DNA of 63,916 nucleotides, filler included, from Collodictyon triciliatum (taxonomy: Eukaryota): the NCBI GenBank assembly GCA_043381765.1. It is 3 parts of 3 records of this genome, joined end to end, with 100 filler letters (N's around TTAATTAATTAA, not from the genome) between each part and the next. Parts side by side here need not be neighbours in the genome. Positions count along the whole stretch, not along the records: positions 1 to 28,420 come from JBHJMP010000977.1; 2 more parts are not named here. One strand, given 5' to 3'. The notes beneath the pieces are model-generated. The model worked only from the letters and a program-made list of their open reading frames with translations, was not told where the DNA came from and did no database searches. Shown here piece by piece: positions 7,730 through 63,916 of the stretch. The position numbers were made by a program, and so were the translations under genes. How positions within the stretch are numbered: position 1 is the first letter of the stretch; each line of letters begins with the position of its first letter.

Positions 7730-7802
7730 GCCCGTCTAGCTCAGTCGGTAGAGCGTGAGGCTCTTAACCTCACGGTCGTGGGTTCGAGCCCCACGGTGGG
7801 CG
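7730..7802 (+). tRNA. tRNA-Lys (anticodon CTT)
   Basis: 73-nt cloverleaf: acceptor GCCCGTC/GGTGGGC, D arm GCTC/GAGC, anticodon arm TGAGG-CTCTTAA-CCTCA, T arm GTGGG-TTCGAGC-CCCAC, with T-runs downstream (Pol III terminator). Confidence 0.97.
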
Positions 7803-9255: not shown

Positions 9256-12200
9256 TTGATGATGATGAAAATGATAATAATGAAAATGATACCAACAAAA
9301 ATCACAACACTTAATGAAAATAATACCAACAAAAATCACAACACTTAAAGTAAATAAATGCACACGACGACCACAACAAGAACGTTAAATTGATGGGAAA
9401 GGAGCTGTTGATAGATTTGTGTTTGTTTAGCACGATGTGAAATCTAGGGCTTATATATGTTATTACTGTTTTTTCAATATATGAAACGAACTTGTGGCAA
9501 TATATATCCTCACGCACACGTGAATTTCTTTTTCAAAAATGATAATGCTGATGCATCGCCACTTGACAATAAGGTGTAAGGATTTACAACCTTACACAAG
9601 CCGACTTACCCGCGAATGTTTCTGTTTTATAGGATTCTATTGCCCAACAAACAGCACGCAACCTGTTCATTGTTGCCAGGGATACTACTGCCCTGATCCA
9701 GCCACGATAAAGATATGTCCCAAAGGCCACTTTTGTCGCACTGGTCAAATCGAGCCTACAAGTATGCATCTTCGCCAAGGAAGCCACACAGCTCTCTCTC
9801 TTTTTTAAATAATATATATATATACACAATCCTTGCATTTTATTCTGTTTGTATACTTCTTTTTCTACCTACAGTCTACCCTTATCTCTACCCTCTGGGT
9901 ACATCTGATAAACTTTTTTTTTTGGATTATACACTCCAACTCTTTGTTCCTATAAGGGAGGTTAGAAAAATTGGGTGAAAATCTCTAAACTTGTCTATAT
10001 GTCATGATTTTTTTTGTGGATGTAAACTGTAGAATGCGCTCCGATGTCTGACTGCCCTGAAGGGACAAAAGAGCAAAAGAAAGTCGGTTCCTTGGCTCTG
10101 TTCATCGCACTTGCTGCGTTAATAGCCATTGGGTACTCAGTGGCAGAGTACAGCGTCAGTCGGCACAGACAGACGAAGATATCAAAGCGTGAAGCGTAAT
10201 ACCCACCTCAGAAACATTTCTCTGCCCAAACCTCAAACCAATATTTCTTTCTGTAAAGAATCAAGCGTAATATCAGTCAATCAACTCTATTCATGCCTAG
10301 ATGTTTTCAAAGTCATGTCATTTCCGTCGTATGCTCTCGATAGTACCAATGTATATATGTTCTTAACCCGCACTTTCTTTTGTAGGAAAAGGAAAGATCA
10401 TATTGAGCTCAAAGCATCTCTCCAAATTAACCTTGCGCAGAAGACAGAGACATACACAATCCAATTCAATGAACTTGGTCTTACTTTACCTGGAGGTCGT
10501 GTAATTATGGATGGTGTCAATGGCGAGCTACAACCCGGAAAAGTCACTGCTGTGATGGGTTAGTAACATTCACTCTTCATTTTGTTGGACACACGCGTTG
10601 ACTTACCATAACAATTCAAAAAAAACTTTTTTTTTATGTTTTGACTCAACATTATTTATATTATATTCAGGGCCTAGTGGAGCTGGAAAAACCACCTTTC
10701 TCTCTCTTATATCTGGAAAAGCCAAGAAAACAAAAGGTACCATCCGAATCAACGGGGTTGAAGAACCTTTAGGTCTTTCAAAGTTTAAAAAGCTGGTTGG
10801 CTTTGTCCCCCAAGAGGATGTGATGTTAAGAACTATGACTGTGAAAGTGAGTGGTTCTTTCTTTCCTTAGTCATTATCATATTATGGTTGACAGCATACA
10901 TTTTTTTAAATTTCTTTCAAACATGTCAATTGAACTACTAGGAAAACCTTGTTTTCAGTGCCCGATACCGGCTACCTGGTAGTATGACCGACAGCGAGAA
11001 AATAAATCGAGTAAATGAGGTATGGTAATTGAGTAAATTATATTCAATATTTGTCTCATCCGATCTAAGCATTCCTTAAGACCATTATAAAACGATTAGT
11101 CTCATCTCATTATTCTTTTGCATCCCCAAGGTGATGGATGTCCTTGGGTTATCAGAGATTGTATACTCTGTAATTGGAGACGAAAGGCAGCGGGGAATCA
11201 GTGGAGGTCAGCGAAAGAGAGTTAACATTGGTATGGAACTAGTTGCAGACCCTTCAATTCTTTTCTTGGATGAACCGACATCAGGTTTGTGATGACCCAT
11301 CGTATGCTCTACTAAGGGATGGCTATTCTCGTTCCTATTCTTTGGGTTTCTATCGTCCGTCTAAACCATTGTCATGGATTTCCATTAATATATTTTCTTG
11401 TTTAACCATCATGTCATTACCATTTAATAAAATTAATACTAAATAATTGTCCTACACCCACAAAATCTGATTGCAAACGATAATAGGATTGGACAGCACA
11501 TCTTCCGACGAAGTTTGCAACTGCCTACGAAAGATTTCAGGACTAGGAATTACCATCGCTACTGTTATTCACCAGCCTAGATATGAAATTTTGCAAAGAA
11601 TTGATAATCTTCTGCTACTGGGTAAAGGAGGAAGAACCGTGTATATCGGCCCAACCAAAGACGCGTTGGCTTATTTTACAGACATGGGATTTGTTTTACC
11701 TCCCCACGGAAATCCAGCGGACTTGTATGTTTTTATATATATAAAAAAAATCTTGGATATATATTAGAAACCACATATAGCCCCTCCTCTTATTACCTCT
11801 TTCCATTTTCTTGATTGCAAAGACATTTTTGTGTTTGACTCTCTAATCATTCGTTTAGGTTCTTTTCATATTTTACTTTCAAATTTTCGCATGCTTTTTT
11901 CTTTTAACTTATTCTTAAATTTTTCTCTGCCATCTAGTTACATGGATGTTGTATCTGGGAAATCATATCAATATGCGCCTAACCAACTAACTAAGCAGGG
12001 TGGATATTACTTATCCAACTTTCAATATAATTTTAAACACCTAGTGATATCACCTAGCATAAATCTATATTTTTCTGCCGTCAATTCACATAAACTGCTT
12101 AAAAAGATCTTTTCGTTTTTTTTTTCTCTTTGGTATAGTGTTGCAAGGATTCACCGATCGTGATCTGCTGCACTTTGTACAGTATCAAGGCTTACCGGAT

Positions 12201-14616
12201 GCCGTAGGTGATGTTATATCCTCCCGCAAGATTAACGGAAATCGCATTTTCCAAATGTCTGAGGAAGAGCTAAAATCTGAATTTGGAGAAGATGGCGGCA
12301 GGCTGTTGGATGTCGCTCGCAATCCCACAAAATGTAAGTATATTGGCAGACTAATGATTTGGCCTTCTTGCATACCATAGAGAGGAAACTGTTTATGGTT
12401 CATTTTACAATCATATAATCCCCCTACTGAGCCTGCGGTGGAAAAAAAATCCTAACAATATCACCATACAGATGAATATTTGAAGCCAAACCTCGAGTTT
12501 ACCCGAGAAAAGCTTTTTGAAGCATGGGACAGCAAAGCTGGAACTTCTACCTCTGAGACAACTTACACGAAGGAAGAGGATGGCTTTGAGTTGCCTTTTG
12601 TTACCCAGCTAATATCGGACGTGAAGACATGGTATTATGAGCTAAGAGAGGCCGTTTTTGGATCTTTTTTCACTGACCCTTTCCGTCAAACGCCTGGATT
12701 TGGTTGGCAATTCTTGTTTTGCCTTTGGAGAGCCTTTGTTCAAACATACCGCGACAGGAGCAAGATGATTGTTGATTCTGTATTACATCTATTCGCTGGG
12801 CTTTTCCTTGGTGTTGCCTCAAATGGTTTAGAATACATAGGTCCTATTCCTGCTGAGCTTGCTCCTGCCTGTCCATATGAACTACTTTCTCAGGATGAAT
12901 GCACACTCCCAATCAGTGACAACTTTGCTCAGTCAGGAAGTATGAAGGAATTAAACAATACATTTTGTGAAAATTATAAGAATTTTCCTCTTTTCATTAT
13001 AAAAGATTTCATCGTAAGGTCCTTTCTACTACTCGCTGGCTTCCTCTTTCTCTTTTTACTACTCGATTGTCATTAACTGAATCCATCTCATCGAATAATG
13101 TTATTGATTGCATATGTTCTCCACTCTTCCCACTTCTTTCATCCGAATCCTGTTCTCTGCGTTAAGATCTCATTTGCTGGGCCATTGGTAAGAATTATAT
13201 CTGGTTATTATCTATCTTATTTTCGAATTTCTTTTAATTTACGCCGATAAAAAATGACTTGGGTTGAGGCTTGCGCCCCTTTTCCCTGTACTTTAAACTA
13301 TCTTGTTGGTAAAAACAAATATATTAGGCTTCGCTGGGATAGCAGTTGGTTCAGGAACTTTTGGAAACGAAAAGGTTGTCTACTGGCGAGAGGCGTCTGC
13401 AGGACTCAACCCATTCAGTTACTTCTTTGCTAAAGTAATAGCTGATATTCCTCGTACGGTAAGTCCTCTCCCTATATACCCATCGCCGGATGCTTCACAG
13501 GTTATACCAACTGCTCACCAGGGTGTTTCGTTAATTTGGATGTCCATCTGAACAGATTCTCTCTGGCACGCTCTTTTACCTGGCATATGTGTTTGTGTTT
13601 TCACCAGTTGGCCGACTAGACCATTTGTACATGCTGATTTTAATTCTGTACTGGGCTGGTTTCAGTAGTGGGTATGTGTTTCTTCTGCACCCATTTTTTT
13701 CTACTTCAATCAATTCACATGTCTTCGATGTACGCTCGAGTTTCAAAATACTTGAGCTCCATCTCATTCGAGCGGGTGTGATGGTGTATTGCCAGGAATC
13801 GTTTGTTTTAATAGCCTTCATATCTAGATATTTCATCTCTCAGCTCGTCCACGTCGAAGCTGCGCCTTTGGTCGGTATTGCTTTTGCCTTGGTCTGGTCT
13901 GTCGTTTTTTCTGGAGTTAACCCGAGGTTGCCCGAGGTGTCAGAAACGTATGGACCTGCATCACAGTCATTGTGGAACATTTCTTATGCCAGGTACTTTT
14001 CTACTCCTTTCATGCACTTTAAGACATTATAACTATGACTATTAACTATGACTCTGATTATGACTTTGATTATGACTTTGATTATGACTTTCATTGGACT
14101 ATGAATATTATTAAAAAATATTATGATGATTGGATACATGTCCCCACGGAGTTTCTCCTCCATTCTTTCATTTTATCATGTCTGTCCACCATTTGAAGAA
14201 GACAATACCTAAATATGGCTTTATCTGTACAACTTGCCTCTCCTTCGTTTGAAATCATTTTTAGGTGGGGGATTGAGGCATTCTACATTATCAACGTTAC
14301 TCCCTTTGAGCACGAATCTGTCGACCCTGGATTGGATTACTGGTTTTTGCCCAATATTTATCACAACATTTTGTCATATAGTAATTACCTATCGAATTTT
14401 TGTTTACTACAGCAAATATGATGCCTGGCCTTAGATTTTACCCCAATTATTTTTATGTGTAAAACATATCTCAAGTGCAACGTTTCCTCTCTTTATAGGG
14501 GATATGACCTGAATAACTTCTGGGACTGCATAGGCCGAATCTTTGGAATATGCCTCATGTGGCAATTCCTGGCGTTAGTGGTGATGCTCGTCAAAGATCG
14601 CGACAAAAAGAAGTAA
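8692..14616 (+). CDS. ABCG half-transporter with signal peptide, Cys-rich ectodomain, TM helix, NBD, SAM-like insert and TMD (ABCG24/28-like architecture)
   Basis: Hydrophobic signal peptide [18 protein letters not shown]; CPxGxYC repeats; Walker [11 protein letters not shown]-loop GFVPQED; signature [10 protein letters not shown]; Walker [13 protein letters not shown]-loop VIHQP; TMD motif [12 protein letters not shown]; stop TAA at 14614-14616. Confidence 0.93.
9129..9252. repeat. (AAC/AAT)n microsatellite in ABCG intron 1, followed by a 34-bp tandem duplication (~9280-9347)
   Basis: Direct reading. Confidence 0.95.
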
Positions 14617-19000: not shown

Positions 19001-19597
19001 AGATAACAAAAGAGAGAAAAAAAGAGAAAAAAGAGAAAGAAGACTTCTTGTTCAATAATCGCGCACGATCGCCCAAAAGGAGTGATTTAAAAGTGGTGTG
19101 ATGCTTCAAAGATCGTTGGCACAGTACAAGTTGTCAGGAATACAACAGCAGCATTCTTTCCTGGCAGCTATGATCAGTCCATTGAGGCAAAAAGGCAGAA
19201 TATAAAAGAAAAAGAAATGAGCACTTGATTATTGCCTGCTGAGCGCTTCGGCCATCCTTTGCGAGGGGGAAATCGTGTGATGATGAGAAAGCAGCCACAC
19301 AAGGAAGCAACAGAATAACGTAAATGCGCCAGATTTAAAATCCTCACTGCACCCTTATATTATCCAGATATGGATAAATCCTTATGCGCAAGTTCTCGGA
19401 AGACAGTTTGCCAAGGGGAATGCTTCGTGGCACTTGTTTCGTCTCTGGTTGTGAGTCCCACAAAAGCAGACAAACACAAAAACATATAAACACAAACACC
19501 AATCCTAGACGGACTCTCAGGAAAAGCAGAAGGGTAACTCTGTCTTCTTTGGTGGCTGTTGTGCCGACTTCTTAGATATTACCATTTTGTCCAGTTT

Positions 19598-19691
19598 TTT
19601 TCTTTTCTTTTCTTTTCTTTTCTTTTCTTTTCTTTTCTTTTCTTTTCTTTTCTTTTCTTTTCTTTTCTTTTCTTTTCTTTTCTTTTCTTTC
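19598..19691. repeat. (TTTTC)n microsatellite just upstream of the E2 start codon
   Basis: Direct reading. Confidence 0.95.
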
Positions 19692-19773
19692 TGTTATTTC
19701 GGATCAGCCTTCTTTCTTCGGTTTTCTCTCAGCCGCCATACAATCTTACCACATACTCATATCGTCTCAGATC

Positions 19774-22700
19774 ATGAGTTCAAGTTACCTTCTGCGCCTG
19801 ACCAAAGAGGTCAAAGACCTCCAAAAGGCTCCACTCGAGGGAATGTAAAAAGAAAACAACTTAGTGCTTAACAATCCACTTTTTTTCGAACTTTTACTCG
19901 CTGAGTCTACAAAATAAAATATGGGCATTATGACCGCAACTTCAACTAATTTACTTTCAACTTTTTCATCTTTTCATATCATTTTCTTATTTTGTTCTCG
20001 TAATCTTTCTAGTTTTGTTGCGCCTGACGAGAACGATATCAGTCAAGTCCACGCTTTGATTTTTGGACCCTCTGGAACACCATACGAAGACGGATTCTTT
20101 TTCCTGCACCTCTCTTTTCCTCCGCAATATCCCCACAAACCCCCGCATGCCAAATTGTAAGCAACATCCTGCCTACCTTATGTTTTTTATTCCACACCAC
20201 GCTAAATCACGATTATTACCTTTGGCTCCTATGGATGTAGTCTGACAACTGATGGTGACCGAGTAAGATTCAACCCAAATCTGTACGCAAACGGCAAAGT
20301 CTGCCTATCGATTCTTGGCACTTGGTCAGGTATAGCAGAACTTGACTTTGCAACTTTTTTTTTTTTTTTTTGTTAAATCACATCATGCATCATTGATAAT
20401 TTGTCTGCATCCCAGACTTATCTAAAATATATTATATTTATATTACAAAGGACCTGAATGGCATTCTAGCTTGGGACTTGGCACAGTTCTCTTGTCCATT
20501 CAGTCTCTGATGAGCAATGAACCTTTCAGAAATGAGGTAGTTTTCTATATGATGCATTCATTTCTTGGGTGCTAGAAATCATATTTAATATTGCTTACTG
20601 GCAATGATTTGACTAATGTCGTACAATCTTATTGGTATAGCCTGGTCACGAAAACGTGAGTATTATGAAATAAAGATGCATTAAGATAAATTCATGAATG
20701 TTAATCGAAGCTACTTTACCATGTCATAGTTGTGTTTTTCCCCTTCCATTTACTTATAGACATGATTTGTAATTTTAGGCAAGAGTCGATCAAGTAGAGG
20801 CATACAATAAAGTGATTAGGCATGAAACACTTCGAGTGGCAGTCGTTGGCTCCATGTCAAATCCTATTTATCCTGGTAATCGCCCTTGCTTTAGATTTTA
20901 TCAATTTTATGCGTTATTTAATCTAGCCAAAGATCTAATGATCATCACACAGAATTCAAGCCTATCTTAGAGCAGTATTTCTTGCTCAATTACAGGTGCT
21001 GTCTTCATTCGATCTTACATTAATGCTTTTATCAACATTTGAAGTTTTATCACTAGAAAAATTATCATCGATACTCTATGTATATGCCACCGTGACCATG
21101 GATTAAAATAAAATTTCCCCCCACAAATTACATACCTTCATACTATATCATCTAGAAAGAATATGTCGAGAGCTCTGAAGCTTTCATCAGAATTTGATGG
21201 CCAAACATTTGAGGTTGACTACATTTTATATCCATTTCCCCCATACCATCTACCAATTTTATGCATATCATTTGTTACATTTAATTTTACTATTATCCAA
21301 ATTAATGTTCCAAATGAAGAAAATGCAAAGTTTAATCACTGAACTTATAGGACCCTCATCGCTCCAACCGAGGAATCTACAATTACAAAGTAATTTTAAC
21401 TCCTGCAAAGGGACTGATATATGTACAATCACACGAGTTTTTACTTTTTATATTTTTATTTGCTCTTATCATTATATTTTCTTCCATTTTGATGTATGGT
21501 GTACATTTTATAGGCCATCGTCAAAAATCTGGAAGAGATAAAGGAAATCATTGAAAAAGGATACGAATCGAAGGGCACTGCTGCTTCTAGTGAGAACCTA
21601 TTGACATATTCAAGAAGAAAACTCCTTATTGAAGCTGATTATTTTTACTTGTTTTAACAGAACCTGGATATATGTATACCCAAGCAGAAATGACGCTCAA
21701 GGACCAATTCGATGATCTGTCTTCCAAGCCCCTCTGGGTTTTCATAAAATCAGATATTTAATCATACTAAGATATCAATCAAACGCTGAAGCATCAAAAC
21801 CGATGTACATAAAAATTATAATAATACCATTTTTATAGGGAGTGTCGTTAGGGATGATAGATTCTGATATTAACCATTGGTCAGTATCCGTCGTAGGGGC
21901 CGACGAAACCATCCTTGAAGGTTTTTTTTTATATTCATCATACTATTAACAATTAGAGTAAGATGTAAGCCATCAATGATATTGAGGAGCAACTAAATGA
22001 CGTTGTGAAAAAAAAATTACCTGTTTATTTATTCTTCCTTTCGAATAGCCAATAATTCATCTCGGTGATTATTCAATCGATATTAGGCTGTGTGATTTTC
22101 TTCAATATCAAATTCAACAAAAATTTTCCTGACGTGCCTCCCAAAGTCTACTTTCCCAACCCTGTCTTCCATCCGAATAGTCGGTTTTAGAATCATTTAT
22201 TAACTCAATCAACAATTTTGCATCTTAAAGGAACATCGCGTTCCTATTCACGTGTTGAATGTTAAAGTCTGTTCGATTTCTATTGCGAAATTGGGATACC
22301 ATTTTATTATTCTCGATTTATTGAAATCTTAATCAACCCCTTTGAATATAGTAAGTGAGGATGGTATACCTTGTCTAACTGAACTTCAAGAATGGAGACC
22401 AGAGTACTCTATTGGATGCCTAATTGTCTCTATTCAAGTGAGTGAAATAGGGAGCCGAATGACATATTTAACTTTGGCTTTGTGTCGAGATTCCCTGTGA
22501 AATAAGTTTTCCTCAATCGGTGGGCTTGACCACATAATCATAATAGGTACCTATCCCAGTTATACTTTTCTCTCCTGTTAACATTATCAAAAAATGAACT
22601 AGGCTCTTCTCACGAACCCAAACATCAGCAACTTTGTGAATGTAGAGGCTGCAGAACTGTTCAAGACGAATCCAACCCGATACAGGCAAGTTTGTCTCGA

Positions 22701-22784
22701 TGGCCACCACGATGCATACTCATTCTACTTATCGCCATCGCTATTAACAGGTCTCGTCTCCGCCGCAGTCTGGAAGACAGCTAA
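19774..22784 (+). CDS. Tandem two-domain E2 ubiquitin-conjugating enzyme (UBE2Z-like N-domain plus UBE2U-like C-domain)
   Basis: Domain 1: [48 protein letters not shown] (Cys codon 20302-20304). Domain 2: [40 protein letters not shown] (Cys codon 22372-22374). The two are joined in frame by intron 21590-21660. Confidence 0.8.
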
Positions 22785-23387
22785 GTTCGCATTTCGCACC
22801 AAGTAGCCTAGTCCGACCCGAACTTTCCAGACTTTGGCGATTCGGCATGATAAAATAAAGTGATAAAAGAAAAAAAAATATAAATAGATTAAAAACGCAA
22901 ATATATAATTTCCACACATAGTAATCCAAAACACAACCTTGTGAATAGGCAATAATGGCTAAAATTTTGTCAACCTCAGCCCCAAAGCGGCAGAGAGGTC
23001 TTCAATTTATCCTAATATGGAAAATAATTTATTGGGAAACATCTTTTGGTTGCAAAGGCCGCGATTATTGGCGCACTGGGTTGCGGAAAAACCACGATGA
23101 ATGGGAAACAAGGAGGCGCGTTGACAGACAACCGGGTTGCTCTGCGGGCTTTTGCCTTATGACTGCAACACGAATCTTTCTGCCAGGAATCATCTTCGGA
23201 GAAGGCTTGAGTTCTTATGGGCCTAAACGCGGGTAATCAAGCAAGCAACCTGACCTGCCCTGATTGAAAAGCGGTGATGAAAAGTATGGGATGGGCAGCC
23301 CAGGCGAAACTTAGCGACCCCCTTTAAAAAAAAAAAAAACGCTCGAGAGAACTACTTCTGTCTGAATCTGATAAAAAAAAAAAAAAA

Positions 23388-23628: not shown

Positions 23629-26600
23629 ATGCAACGCGGCCGCAGCCCTGATGATTCTGCCGGAGACGGCGCACTCCCATCGGGTGTCCATCACGTTGTG
23701 ATTCCTCCGCGACCACCACGCAAGACTTTAACCGTGCAAACTCCTTCTTCGGCCTCGTCTGTCCCCGCCAGTCTCTCGTCTGCTCAAACACCATTACAAA
23801 CGCAAATGCAATCACAATCACAATCACAATCACAATCACAATCACAATCACAATCACAATCACAATCACAATCACAATCACAATCACACATGCAAAGTCC
23901 GGCTCTTTACCTCGTCCCAACATCTGGCACGCCTCCGATCCGTCTGCCTTATCAACCGCAGCTGCAATCAACGCTCAACCATGCCAAACCTGGGCATCCT
24001 TCCCAATCGACTGCACCCAATACGCAAGGGACCTCTTCAATGCCCAGCCAGGCAACGGCATCGAGCGCAAATGCTTATCCTCAGATGCATGCAACTATGA
24101 ATAATATACCTGTGTCGATGCCCATGTCTGTGCCTATGCAAATGCCCATAAATATGAATATGCCAATGCCGGTGCAGATGCCAATGCAAGTGCCAATGTC
24201 TATGCCCATGGGAGTTCCTATGAATATGAACATGCCCATGCAGATGCCGATCAATATGGCGGTAAATATGCCCATGCAAAGCCACATGTATGCAAACCAG
24301 ATTCCTGTTTCTTATGCGTATTCACCTCAGTCGTATACCTACTCGCCACAAAATGCAGCCCATCCCCAAGCTTGGCAGCCATCTCAGTACTCTCCATGTG
24401 ATCAATCATCTCCTGTATTTGCAAATCAAGTAACCAGCACCGCTTCTCAAAATGTGCAAGGTCAATCACATCCGCAGCAGAGCCCTCAACAACCACAAGT
24501 GCAAGGACATTCCCCCCAATCTATGCATCAGCACATTCAAATGCACCATCCTCAACAAATGCCGTATCACACGCACTCATTCATGAACCCGATGCACGTA
24601 CAACAATTACAGCAAATGCAGCAAATGCAACAATTACAACAGATGCAACAGATGCAACAGCATATGCACCCAAATCCTGACCCTACAAAGAGGCCCCCAA
24701 ATCAATCTGCTATGCCCAATCATCCAGGTCAGCTACAATCTCAACTTCAACCAAATCCACAATCCACATCTGTCTCCCCTAGTAGCGGTGCAAATGCAAG
24801 CAAAAAACCGCGTATGTTGAATCATGCCACTGAGAATGTTGTATCAGACAACATCCAAATACAGACACCTTCTTCGTCACAAACCCCATCCGTCTCTCAC
24901 ACAAACTCTCAGTGCCTGTCACAATCAACCCAAATCCCCTTGCAAGGCCTTACAAACAGCACAAGTGCGAGTATTCCGACTGCCCCAAACACTCCAACTC
25001 CCGGCAGGAAAAGAATCGCTAGCTCATTAGATAAGCAGCCTCACAACATCCTTAAAAATGCAAAGAAAGTACAGCTGCGAGAAATGTTCTATAAGACTCT
25101 GTCTGCAAAGAGAGGTGCACAAAGGAGCTCAGGAGACCCCGGCCAGTCCCCAAGTCCTGAAAATAAGCCTATTTTCAAGGAAAAACACATTAATGAGCCA
25201 GACGATGGAGAAGCTGCAGTGGAAAATAGAGACGAAGGAGGCCAAGGCCACGATTCCCGAAAGGACGCGCACTCGCCTGGATTGAATTCTTCAGTTTATA
25301 GACCTTCACCTTTTTCTGACACCCATGGACAACAATCTTTTGCCATTAGGGAGACCAAAGCTCCGTCACAATCACCAGGTATTTATAAGATTACAAATGA
25401 AAGAAATTCATTTTCTTACACAACTTTCCTTTCAAAAAAATTATGGCATCTCTTTTTGCATCAGGAAAACAAGAACCGGCTCAAGTTACGAGAGATCTTA
25501 CAAGGAAGACTGTTGAGAGTCCTCGAGATGCAACAGCAAAGTCTGCAAGGAAAGAACACCGTGACCAAATGGATAGAAGCCTCGAAAGTATTTTGAGGTG
25601 CTCAGCCGATGTAGACCTGGAATCAAATGACACCATTTCGACAGGTGGGCACATGAATTGGCGAGCTCGCGAATGGAAGCAGAACGAAATGGATAAGTTG
25701 ATTGAATGCGTCAAGATGCATGGTGAAACAGACCAGTGGGACGCCGTAGCTGAAGATTTAGGGTTGGGTCGTTCGCCTCTGGAATGTAAAAAATACTGGA
25801 CAAGCGTCGTCTATCCAAACTACAAAAACAGGTTTTGCTTTATTCTTATTTATCATCTTTATTTTGGCATTTCTGTGCTTTTTTATTTTGTATATTATTT
25901 TTAGAAAAAAATATGTAATCAACATGAACAACAAGATGGCCCCACACATTCATAAAAAATATTTTGAGGGGGAAAAATTCTTTATTTTATTTTTTAGAAA
26001 ATGGACTTTTGAAGAAGACAAGATATTGCTAAAAGGATTTCGGATGCATGGAGAGTCATGGGATATCATCTCAACTATGCTTCTGGCTCGATCTGAGCGA
26101 TTGGTATGCTCTAATAGCATTATTTTTATTTTTTTTTACTCAAAAATATCAATCAGTCTCTTTCACTCTTTTTTTTTGTTGAAACATTTTTCTTTCAAAA
26201 AAAAACATCAATTATATATAATTTCTTCCTGCACCCACCACTATTTTATTCGCTGAATTTTTTCTTTTGATTCAATAGTGCTGCGAAAGATGGAAGCACT
26301 GGAAAGAACTGGCATCCAATCTCGTGGAGATGGGGATTGAGCATATTGAATCTGTAGCGCCATATCAAAGTATGATTCTAGGGTGGAAAGAAGAGAAACT
26401 TTGGACCCTGCTGCCCATAGCACACGCATTGCCCTGTGTATTGTTCACAAAGTCCAACCAAAGGCTAGCTAGTGGTGGGAAAAGTGGAGTTCAGCTCTTT
26501 ACTGAGCTCTTGGAGAGCAGAGAAGCTCTTGAGAAATACATTCGAGCTTTCGTGGCAAATACATCAGTCAGCTCCAATACATACTCAACAAGCTCTGTCG

Positions 26601-60408: not shown

Positions 60409-63689
<3,281 letters not shown>

Positions 63690-63916
63690 GTTTGCATGCC
63701 TCACTTTGATTTCTCGGCGCCATATTCCTTTATACTCTTTATATAGTATTTGAGTTAGTTGACTTAAATCTAATAAATGTTTGTTCTGTCAATAATAATA
63801 ATAAATAAGAATCATCTGAATTCATAAAAAAAAAAAAAAAAAAAATCAATACAAAAAAAAAGAGCGTAGCCTTAAATACAATAATATTTTTATTTTAATA
63901 TTTTTTTTTTATTTTT

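Follow-up and report, generated by a model that had tools for sequence, protein, structure and literature searches.

Ubiquitin-conjugating enzymes (E2s) are treated as single-domain carriers, and helper UBC folds such as the ubiquitin E2 variants (UEVs, which lack the catalytic Cys) are known as separate subunits. In Ubc13-Mms2/Uev1 ubiquitin is positioned by a second UBC fold, the partner of an active E2. BRE/BABAM2 and the double-RWD protein FANCL each contain two or more UBC-type folds in one chain, and all of these folds are dead. UBE2Z carries a C-terminal extension that packs on the backside of its own core and an N-terminal extension needed for UBA6 selectivity, as set out in passages of PMC4705383; its LB loop is given as WTGP (W-x-G-P after the Cys) in a passage of PMC13065764, and a passage of PMC6539292 restricts the reported occurrence of UBA6 to vertebrates and sea urchins. 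In a 63.9-kb stretch of Collodictyon triciliatum DNA (the window, meaning the whole stretch that was analysed) we find a gene in which a UBE2Z-type E2 is fused to a second complete UBC domain. Judged by sequence comparison, its product is a member of what appears to be an old, widely scattered and apparently unstudied family of UBE2Z plus second-UBC fusions, whose second domain has usually lost the active-site Cys. The reading that we favour, with a probability of roughly 60%, is that domain 1 does the work of the E2, with domain 2 as an accessory UBC fold built into the same chain.

The gene lies on the + strand at positions 19774-22784. In a model built from splice signals and reading frames it consists of 16 exons in frame, with a coding length of 1173 nt (390 aa) from the ATG at 19774 to the TAA at 22782-22784 (Table 1). 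Its 15 introns measure 65-172 nt and are of the GT-AG type in 14 cases and GC-AG in the last. The protein begins with a UBE2Z-type E2 domain and its C-terminal extension (Cys93), followed by a second complete UBC domain (HPN, Cys331). The active-site motif of domain 1, from NPN to Cys93, covers residues 83-93 (Cys93 codon, 20302-20304), and that of domain 2, HPNISEDGIPC, covers residues 321-331 (Cys331 codon, 22372-22374) and is encoded across exons 13 and 14. Pfam UQ_con (PF00179) matches exons of domain 1 (exon 2, E 2.9e-12, profile 22-64; exon 3, profile 70-92; exon 4, profile 90-111) and of domain 2 (exon 13, E 1.5e-4, profile 48-74; exon 15, profile 106-135), and the matches are colinear in both halves of the gene. 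There was no UQ_con match in five of the ten exon pieces scanned, all five being short or outside the core. The rebuilt model confirms the ATG, the stop and both motifs of the first-pass annotation. The claim of two complete UBC domains in one polypeptide is likewise borne out by the exon matches to Pfam, by the RNA joints and by an ortholog, and each domain does carry a Cys at its catalytic position.

Six RNA runs were sampled, and part of the stretch was present in three. The RNA evidence consists of assembled contigs of runs X1, X2, X3 and X5, which show presence and joints and not absence, level, strand or ends; X3 is a metatranscriptome of a second study, and the contigs covering the linker between the two domains are those of X1 and X2, X3 and X5 not reaching it. 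X1 and X2 each contained 0.21 of the sampled words, about what is expected from a fully spliced mRNA. One loose end in X2 matches what we take to be the SMART template-switch oligo, so X2 is cDNA. RNA joints cover all 15 introns. The linker intron (GTGAGA...AACAG) has exactly the boundaries, the length of 71 nt, the phase 1 and the GT-AG ends claimed for it, and the joint across 21589/21661 is present in X1 and X2; it is listed as 21587 to 21661 with two letters between, which equals 21589/21661 with a synonymous T>C change at 21588. A single X1 contig of 1375 nt (19846..22878) contains exons 2-16, all later joints, both domains and 11 terminal extra A. Its length corresponds to that of exons 2-16 together with the part of intron 1 that it retains and one inserted base. 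This contig begins inside intron 1 (19845-20012) and retains it, with 4 base changes and one inserted base relative to the window; intron 1 is removed in X2 and X5. A genomic A run stands directly before 22878, and the exact poly(A) site is thus not fixed. X3 confirms intron 6, introns 11-14 (the four GT-AG joints of domain 2) and the GC-AG intron 15, whose joint is listed as 22681/22747 with 5 letters that fit on either side, so that 22685/22751 is equally good.

Translation through the linker intron gives, as had been predicted, a TAA at 21655-21657 and a 261-aa product ending in DYFYLF. Neither a linker-retained form nor a loose end or leader-joined form at 21661 was found among the contigs listed, which cannot show absence. 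The linker joint in two runs, the one contig across both domains and a colinear 390-aa protein of Diphylleia rotans together uphold one spliced open reading frame (ORF) rather than two genes.

Diphylleia rotans provides the best match to domain 1, and a cluster look-up showed that the matched cluster includes this 390-aa isoform (EukProt EP00002_P027792, here P0153). P0153 aligns end to end with the window protein, with 205 of 390 residues identical (52.6%); identity is highest in the domain-1 core (66%), followed by domain 2 (52%), the extension (32%) and the linker (17%). Length, order of parts, both Cys and the 11-residue active-site loop of domain 2 are the same in the two proteins and their C-termini are similar, which confirms the GC-AG last intron, whereas the linkers are unrelated in sequence and P0153 is known solely as a transcriptome ORF. 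At the point where an independent domain-2 ORF would have to begin, P0153 lacks a Met. Pfam places 2 UQ_con stretches on it (210.8 bits) and NCBIfam gave no match; the two UQ_con matches expected of the spliced protein are seen in the ortholog, and in the window gene exons of both halves match. The same Trinity gene also yields an isoform of 240 aa; it diverges from the 390-aa one beyond residue 238 and meets a stop 2 codons later, and in the alignment the point of divergence falls about four residues from the site of the window linker intron. From its sequence this isoform looks like retention of the equivalent intron, and it may simply be pre-mRNA.

A search with exon 2 among 1.84 billion representative proteins returned 1944 matches at E<=0.001, with the top of the list rich in proteins that have two or more matched stretches. 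Pfam found at least two UQ_con stretches in 37 of the 44 multi-stretch proteins scanned (varied architectures, 192-1098 aa), so that multi-UBC proteins are not rare in predicted proteomes. Some of them may be merged gene models. A tick protein (P0001) contains two UBE2Z-like repeats and may be such a merged model. Two other protein searches contributed no members: exon 2 against longer proteins gave 1 candidate, which received no score, and residues 240-390 of the Diphylleia protein gave 98 candidates, of which none passed. A domain-2 profile (A1) was built from seven second domains and then used to search longer proteins, which gave 37 matches when only the 7999 candidates sharing most words were scored; the known members P0026 and P0044 were missed, and the family size is consequently a lower bound. 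We count at least 26 fusions of UBE2Z and a second UBC domain, the window protein included, some of them near-duplicates. The double-headed architecture is not unique, which lowers the novelty that the first-pass annotation saw in it: at least 25 other database proteins share it, most of them without the second Cys. That annotation had also proposed to look for the architecture in other protists and fungi, and there it is indeed present, in Diphylleia, euglenids, diplonemids, the prokinetoplastid Papus and zoopagomycete fungi (Syncephalis, Thamnocephalis), together with unnamed transcriptome and metagenome proteins. At source these relatives are named only "UBE2Z" or "ubiquitin-conjugating enzyme/RWD-like protein". 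Full-text literature searches gave no paper on natural tandem-UBC or E2-UEV fusions among the matches listed, which in one case were 25 of 133, all off topic.

The window protein fits the definition of this family, a UBE2Z-type domain with its extension followed by a UBC domain with H-P-N-[IV]-[ST]-x-x-G-x-P. All 26 fused proteins have the catalytic Cys of domain 1. At the catalytic position of domain 2 the residue is C in 7, W in 8, Y in 7, A in 2 and L in 1, with a gap in the remaining one; the seven Cys bearers are the window protein, Diphylleia and five diplonemids. HPN of domain 2 is kept in 18/26, and the Pro before the catalytic position in most. The groupings in the domain-1 subtree recur in the domain-2 subtree, a single domain-2 clade is not rejected (approximately unbiased test, p 0.476), and at least two changes between the Cys and non-Cys states are needed on the tree. 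The domain-2 hidden Markov model (HMM) scores 198 bits on residues 247-390 of the window protein, a partly circular value with the window in the seed, and 87-190 bits on members outside the seed.

Three further sets of sequences touch on this family. A metagenome search yielded 15 loci, all single-domain UBE2Z-like genes with 38-48% identity, which align with domain 1 of the window protein over about 160-230 residues. No second UBC domain was found further along in these 15 loci, a result of little weight since several have short flanks; the domain-2 query hit the same UBC domain as domain 1 in 12 of them and nothing in the other three. A 1031-aa protein of the diplonemid Namystynia karyoxenos (P0084) combines a UBE2Z-type domain, a RING-variant domain and, near its C-terminal third, a weak degenerate UBC-like stretch; it is a possible E2-E3 fusion on the same N-terminal module. 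Three ENA proteins of 311-476 aa (P0170-P0172) fall inside the diplonemid domain-2 clade, and the HMM found no first UBC domain in them; probably each represents an incomplete gene model of this fusion.

Domain 1 had been assigned to the UBE2Z/BIRC6 class with its C-terminal extension, and the ortholog agrees. Residues 3-230 of P0153 have human UBE2Z as their best match in PDB (E 7.5e-51), with the BIRC6 UBC domain next, and the AlphaFold2 (AF2) model of P0153 superimposes on UBE2Z 5a4p with a template modelling (TM) score of 0.91 over 226 columns. In the window protein Cys93 stands in the context G-K-V-C-L-S-I-L-G, and W-S-G-P comes directly after C-L-S-I-L-G-T.

The affinities of domain 2 are less simple. 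Residues 300-388 of P0153 match UBE2A/B and RAD6 in PDB, and the domain-2 profile scores 146-152 bits on animal and plant chains of the UBE2A/B type, 127-131 on yeast RAD6/Ubc2 and 113 on UBE2D. The AF2 model of P0153 domain 2 fits UBE2A with a TM score of 0.90 over 143 columns (root-mean-square deviation, 1.2). Single domain-2 exons gave weak generic E2 matches in PDB (E 0.0016 to 2) that are not informative on subfamily. Aligned with a RAD6-like protein, window domain 2 is 34.7% identical, with HPN and Cys331 in register; the active-site loop of the window and Diphylleia domains is the most RAD6-like of the family, and loop lengths match RAD6 with no indels except one residue. Helix 1 is acidic, with 1 basic residue versus 5 in the RAD6-like protein. 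A careful tree joins RAD6-like proteins, all domain 2 sequences and mollusc "E2 U-like" proteins in one clade (support 97/93, starred), where domain 2 is sister to the RAD6-like rows and not nested within them. We infer from these comparisons that domain 2 is derived from the RAD6/UBE2A-B family rather than a member of it. It differs from RAD6, UBE2A and UBE2B in its acidic helix 1, in the Pro directly before the Cys, in never being free-standing here and in the loss of the Cys in 19 of the 26 members.

The first-pass annotation had called domain 2 UBE2U-like, and here the evidence divides. Within the RAD6-derived clade, domain 2 of the window protein and of Diphylleia groups with two mollusc E2 U-like proteins (P0177, P0175; the label is that of NCBI) at 93/87, not starred, and shares with them G-x-P-C, P-x-W-G after helix 1 and V-S-x-Q-A-L-L-x-N-P-N, although the mollusc proteins are free-standing E2s with a long C-terminal tail. 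In blastp, window domain 2 scores 99.8 bits against the E2 U-like protein of Littorina and 92.4 against the RAD6-like one, whereas for Diphylleia and every other domain 2 the RAD6-like score is the higher. An Atlas UBE2U cluster scored 0.87, which is a lead only, and the other Atlas matches for domain 2 were generic E2 clusters. Against this, the domain-2 profile is best on RAD6/UBE2A-B, and human UBE2U is absent from the best 60 PDB rows of that search. The branches are long, and the grouping with the mollusc proteins may be false; the UBE2U affinity, which these sequence comparisons suggest, is a fair lead and not a settled assignment. UEV was also considered as a class for window domain 2 and rejected: Cys331 is present, and the Pfam UEV matches of P0153 are weak and lie on domain 1.

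Gene structure, splicing, fusion, family and residue pattern are observations; every functional step that follows is inferred from them. Domain 1 would be the conserved working head, presumably charged by the general ubiquitin E1, since the passage cited above for the distribution of UBA6 confines it to vertebrates and sea urchins, and would hand ubiquitin on. Charging of the two domains by two different E1s, an idea of the first-pass annotation, is not supported. Domain 2 would be an accessory in cis, a UBC fold that, like a UEV partner, holds ubiquitin, an E3 or a substrate beside domain 1, or tunes domain 1. If the extension lies over the backside of its own core, as described for UBE2Z in the passages cited above, a further fold that binds ubiquitin would make sense. 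Such a role would suit a family that keeps the domain 2 fold and the H of HPN with the Cys position replaceable. Contacts between the ubiquitin-fold domain of E1 and E2, taken with the acidic helix 1, argue against direct E1 charging of domain 2. The lineage of the window retains the Cys and a RAD6-like loop, and some catalytic use there is possible, not the default reading. The AF2 model of P0153, made with 23 sequences, has a predicted local distance difference test (pLDDT) value of 85.5 and a predicted TM score (pTM) of 0.85; a model of the Euglena gracilis protein reaches pTM 0.87, with the linker as one confident helix. These models hint at a fixed arrangement of the two domains. A complex prediction of P0153 residues 1-236 with 246-390 scored 0.00 without alignments or controls and is no evidence either way.

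Several points weigh against the accessory role. Window and Diphylleia domain 2 keep HPN, the Cys and RAD6 loop lengths, on paper all that an active E2 needs, so that this reading may be wrong for their lineage. Five diplonemids also keep HPN and the Cys, and at least Diplonema japonicum shares a loop deletion. Codons for C, W and Y are one base apart, so that the residue pattern fits retention and reversal alike. The sample of the family is small, at 26 rows that include near-duplicates, the pTM is only an indirect hint with linker residues 237-245 of P0153 below pLDDT 50, and the RNA contigs taken alone are assemblies, not single molecules.

The alternative that survives best, and which we regard as possible in a tentative way, is a true double-headed E2, in which Cys93 and Cys331 both form thioesters, either independently or with transfer from Cys93 to Cys331, so that the protein could prime and extend chains or hold two ubiquitins. 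The seven members with HPN and Cys in domain 2, the particularly RAD6-like loop of window and Diphylleia, and the 52% identity of domain 2 between these two species beside 17% in the linker all speak for it. Yet a function common to the family needs no second Cys, with 19 of 26 members lacking it; helix 1 of domain 2 is without the RAD6-like basic residues; and the Pro before the Cys is kept in most members with or without the Cys, so the loop seems conserved for another reason. We also know of no E2-to-E2 relay in cis. A broader version would see ancient two-headed E2s across several supergroups, with both heads catalytic in the window lineage, Diphylleia and diplonemids, either as a cis relay from the UBE2Z-type Cys to the RAD6/UBE2U-type Cys or with both loaded, and the Cys-less relatives as later degenerations; this we consider rather unlikely.

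It is quite improbable, as an additional and non-exclusive role, that the locus gives two products: domain 2 alone, from the ATG at 21672 or from a leader at the 21660 acceptor, or a 261-aa single-domain E2 through regulated linker retention. A distance of 15 nt separates the ATG at 21672 from the stop at 21655-57, a leader is apparently added at another AG acceptor of this gene (see below), so that trans-splicing may exist, and the 240-aa Diphylleia isoform ends 2 codons past the equivalent point. That unspliced Trinity isoform can, however, be plain pre-mRNA, domain 2 of Diphylleia lacks a Met at its start, and 25 other proteins are fused; the lack of a loose end at 21661 and of a retained-linker contig in the list is weaker evidence on the same side, since contigs drop rare forms. 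An artefact, with two adjacent genes joined because the RNA assembly is chimeric or because an intron happens to be in frame, is scarcely credible: a contig that spans two genes is no proof that one transcript did, and the RNA here is assembled contigs, but the joint of exons 10 and 11 uses canonical GT-AG sites, in frame, in two runs, the Diphylleia protein is colinear at 52.6% identity, and the architecture recurs in 24 further proteins of other lineages.

Table 1. Features of the two-UBC gene and of other genes in the window (positions of the whole stretch).
Feature	Position	Strand	Basis or remark
5' untranslated region (UTR)	19769..19773	+	behind AG acceptor 19767-68; upstream leader of 20-21 nt not encoded in window
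Exon 1, ATG, helix 1 of domain 1	19774..19844	+	model; RNA joint 19844/20013 in X2, X5
Exon 2, UBC core of domain 1	20013..20156	+	Pfam UQ_con; RNA joints
Exon 3, NPN and catalytic Cys93	20241..20329	+	model, Pfam; RNA joints in X1, X2
Exon 4, rest of LB-type loop after WSG (PEW...) and helix 2	20451..20536	+	model, Pfam, RNA joints
Exon 5, 15-nt microexon (PGHEN) in UBE2Z-type domain	20641..20655	+	letters between 20536 and 20779 in X1, X2 contigs
Exon 6, start of UBE2Z-type C-terminal extension	20779..20875	+	model; RNA joints X1, X2, X3
Exon 7, C-terminal extension	20953..20995	+	model, RNA
Exon 8, C-terminal extension	21156..21213	+	model, RNA
Exon 9, C-terminal extension	21351..21389	+	model, RNA
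Exon 10, last extension helix and first half of linker	21514..21589	+	model, RNA
Linker intron, 71 nt, GT-AG, phase 1	21590..21660	+	spliced out in X1 (side 74), X2 (side 21)
Exon 11, linker and helix 1 of domain 2	21661..21737	+	model, RNA
Exon 12, beta strands of domain 2	21839..21920	+	model; RNA joints X1, X2, X3
Exon 13, domain 2 as far as HPN	22087..22179	+	Pfam UQ_con; RNA joints
Exon 14, domain 2 active-site loop with Cys331	22352..22437	+	model; RNA joints
Exon 15, helices 3-4 of domain 2	22603..22685	+	model, Pfam; RNA joints
Last intron, GC-AG, 65 nt	22686..22750	+	joint in X1, X2, X3 (two studies)
Exon 16 coding part and TAA	22751..22784	+	model, RNA, ortholog alignment
3' UTR	22785..22903	+	X1 contig end 22878 plus 11 extra A; X2 contig reaches 22903
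tRNA-Lys(CTT)	7730-7802		ordinary nuclear gene in window
ABC-2 type transporter	10126-14032		ordinary nuclear gene in window
Protein with two Myb repeats	25401-26253		just downstream of two-UBC gene
Nop14-like gene	63305-63706		ordinary nuclear gene in window

Contigs of X2 and X5, from two studies, start with the same 20-21 nt, joined at 19769 right after an AG. This acceptor follows a long pyrimidine tract containing a (TTCTT)n repeat (region 19596-19773). Even with 3 mismatches allowed, the leader 20-mer matches nowhere in the window; the 14.7 kb upstream of the acceptor are free of N gaps and contain other genes. The leader is probably a spliced leader. Its exact string was not found in the literature, and a spliced leader was not mentioned among the literature matches listed that name Diphylleia, Collodictyon or CRuMs. 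The window as a whole contains 11 N gaps (3214 N) and many microsatellites.

The permanent fusion of a UBE2Z-type E2 to a second UBC domain, recurring in Diphylleia, Euglenozoa and zoopagomycete fungi, provides a natural series of second domains that ranges from those with the Cys to those without it. The series poses two questions: what role a second UBC fold has for an E2 whose backside its own extension covers, and whether a thioester can pass between two E2 active sites in one chain. A cis relay, if true, would be an E2-to-E2 transfer in one polypeptide, which to our knowledge has been described for no E2. UBE2Z-type E2s are also old and widespread beyond the narrow reported range of UBA6, so that the "UBA6-specific" role in vertebrates is likely a late specialisation.

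Compared with human UBE2Z/USE1 (class IV E2, KEGG K10585; PDB 5a4p, 9ylb), the window protein shares NPN instead of HPN, the W-x-G-P loop and the two-helix C-terminal extension. It differs in having no N-terminal extension of about 100 residues, beginning at helix 1 of the UBC core as do most of the 22 sequences aligned with P0153 (near helix 1), and in carrying a whole extra UBC domain. BRE/BABAM2 and the double RWD of FANCL differ from it in that its domain 1 is a complete E2. The likeness to Ubc13-Mms2/Uev1 is a works-like analogy only, as that pair consists of two separate polypeptides of other E2 subfamilies, whereas in the window protein the two folds are joined in one chain and domain 2 has a Cys.

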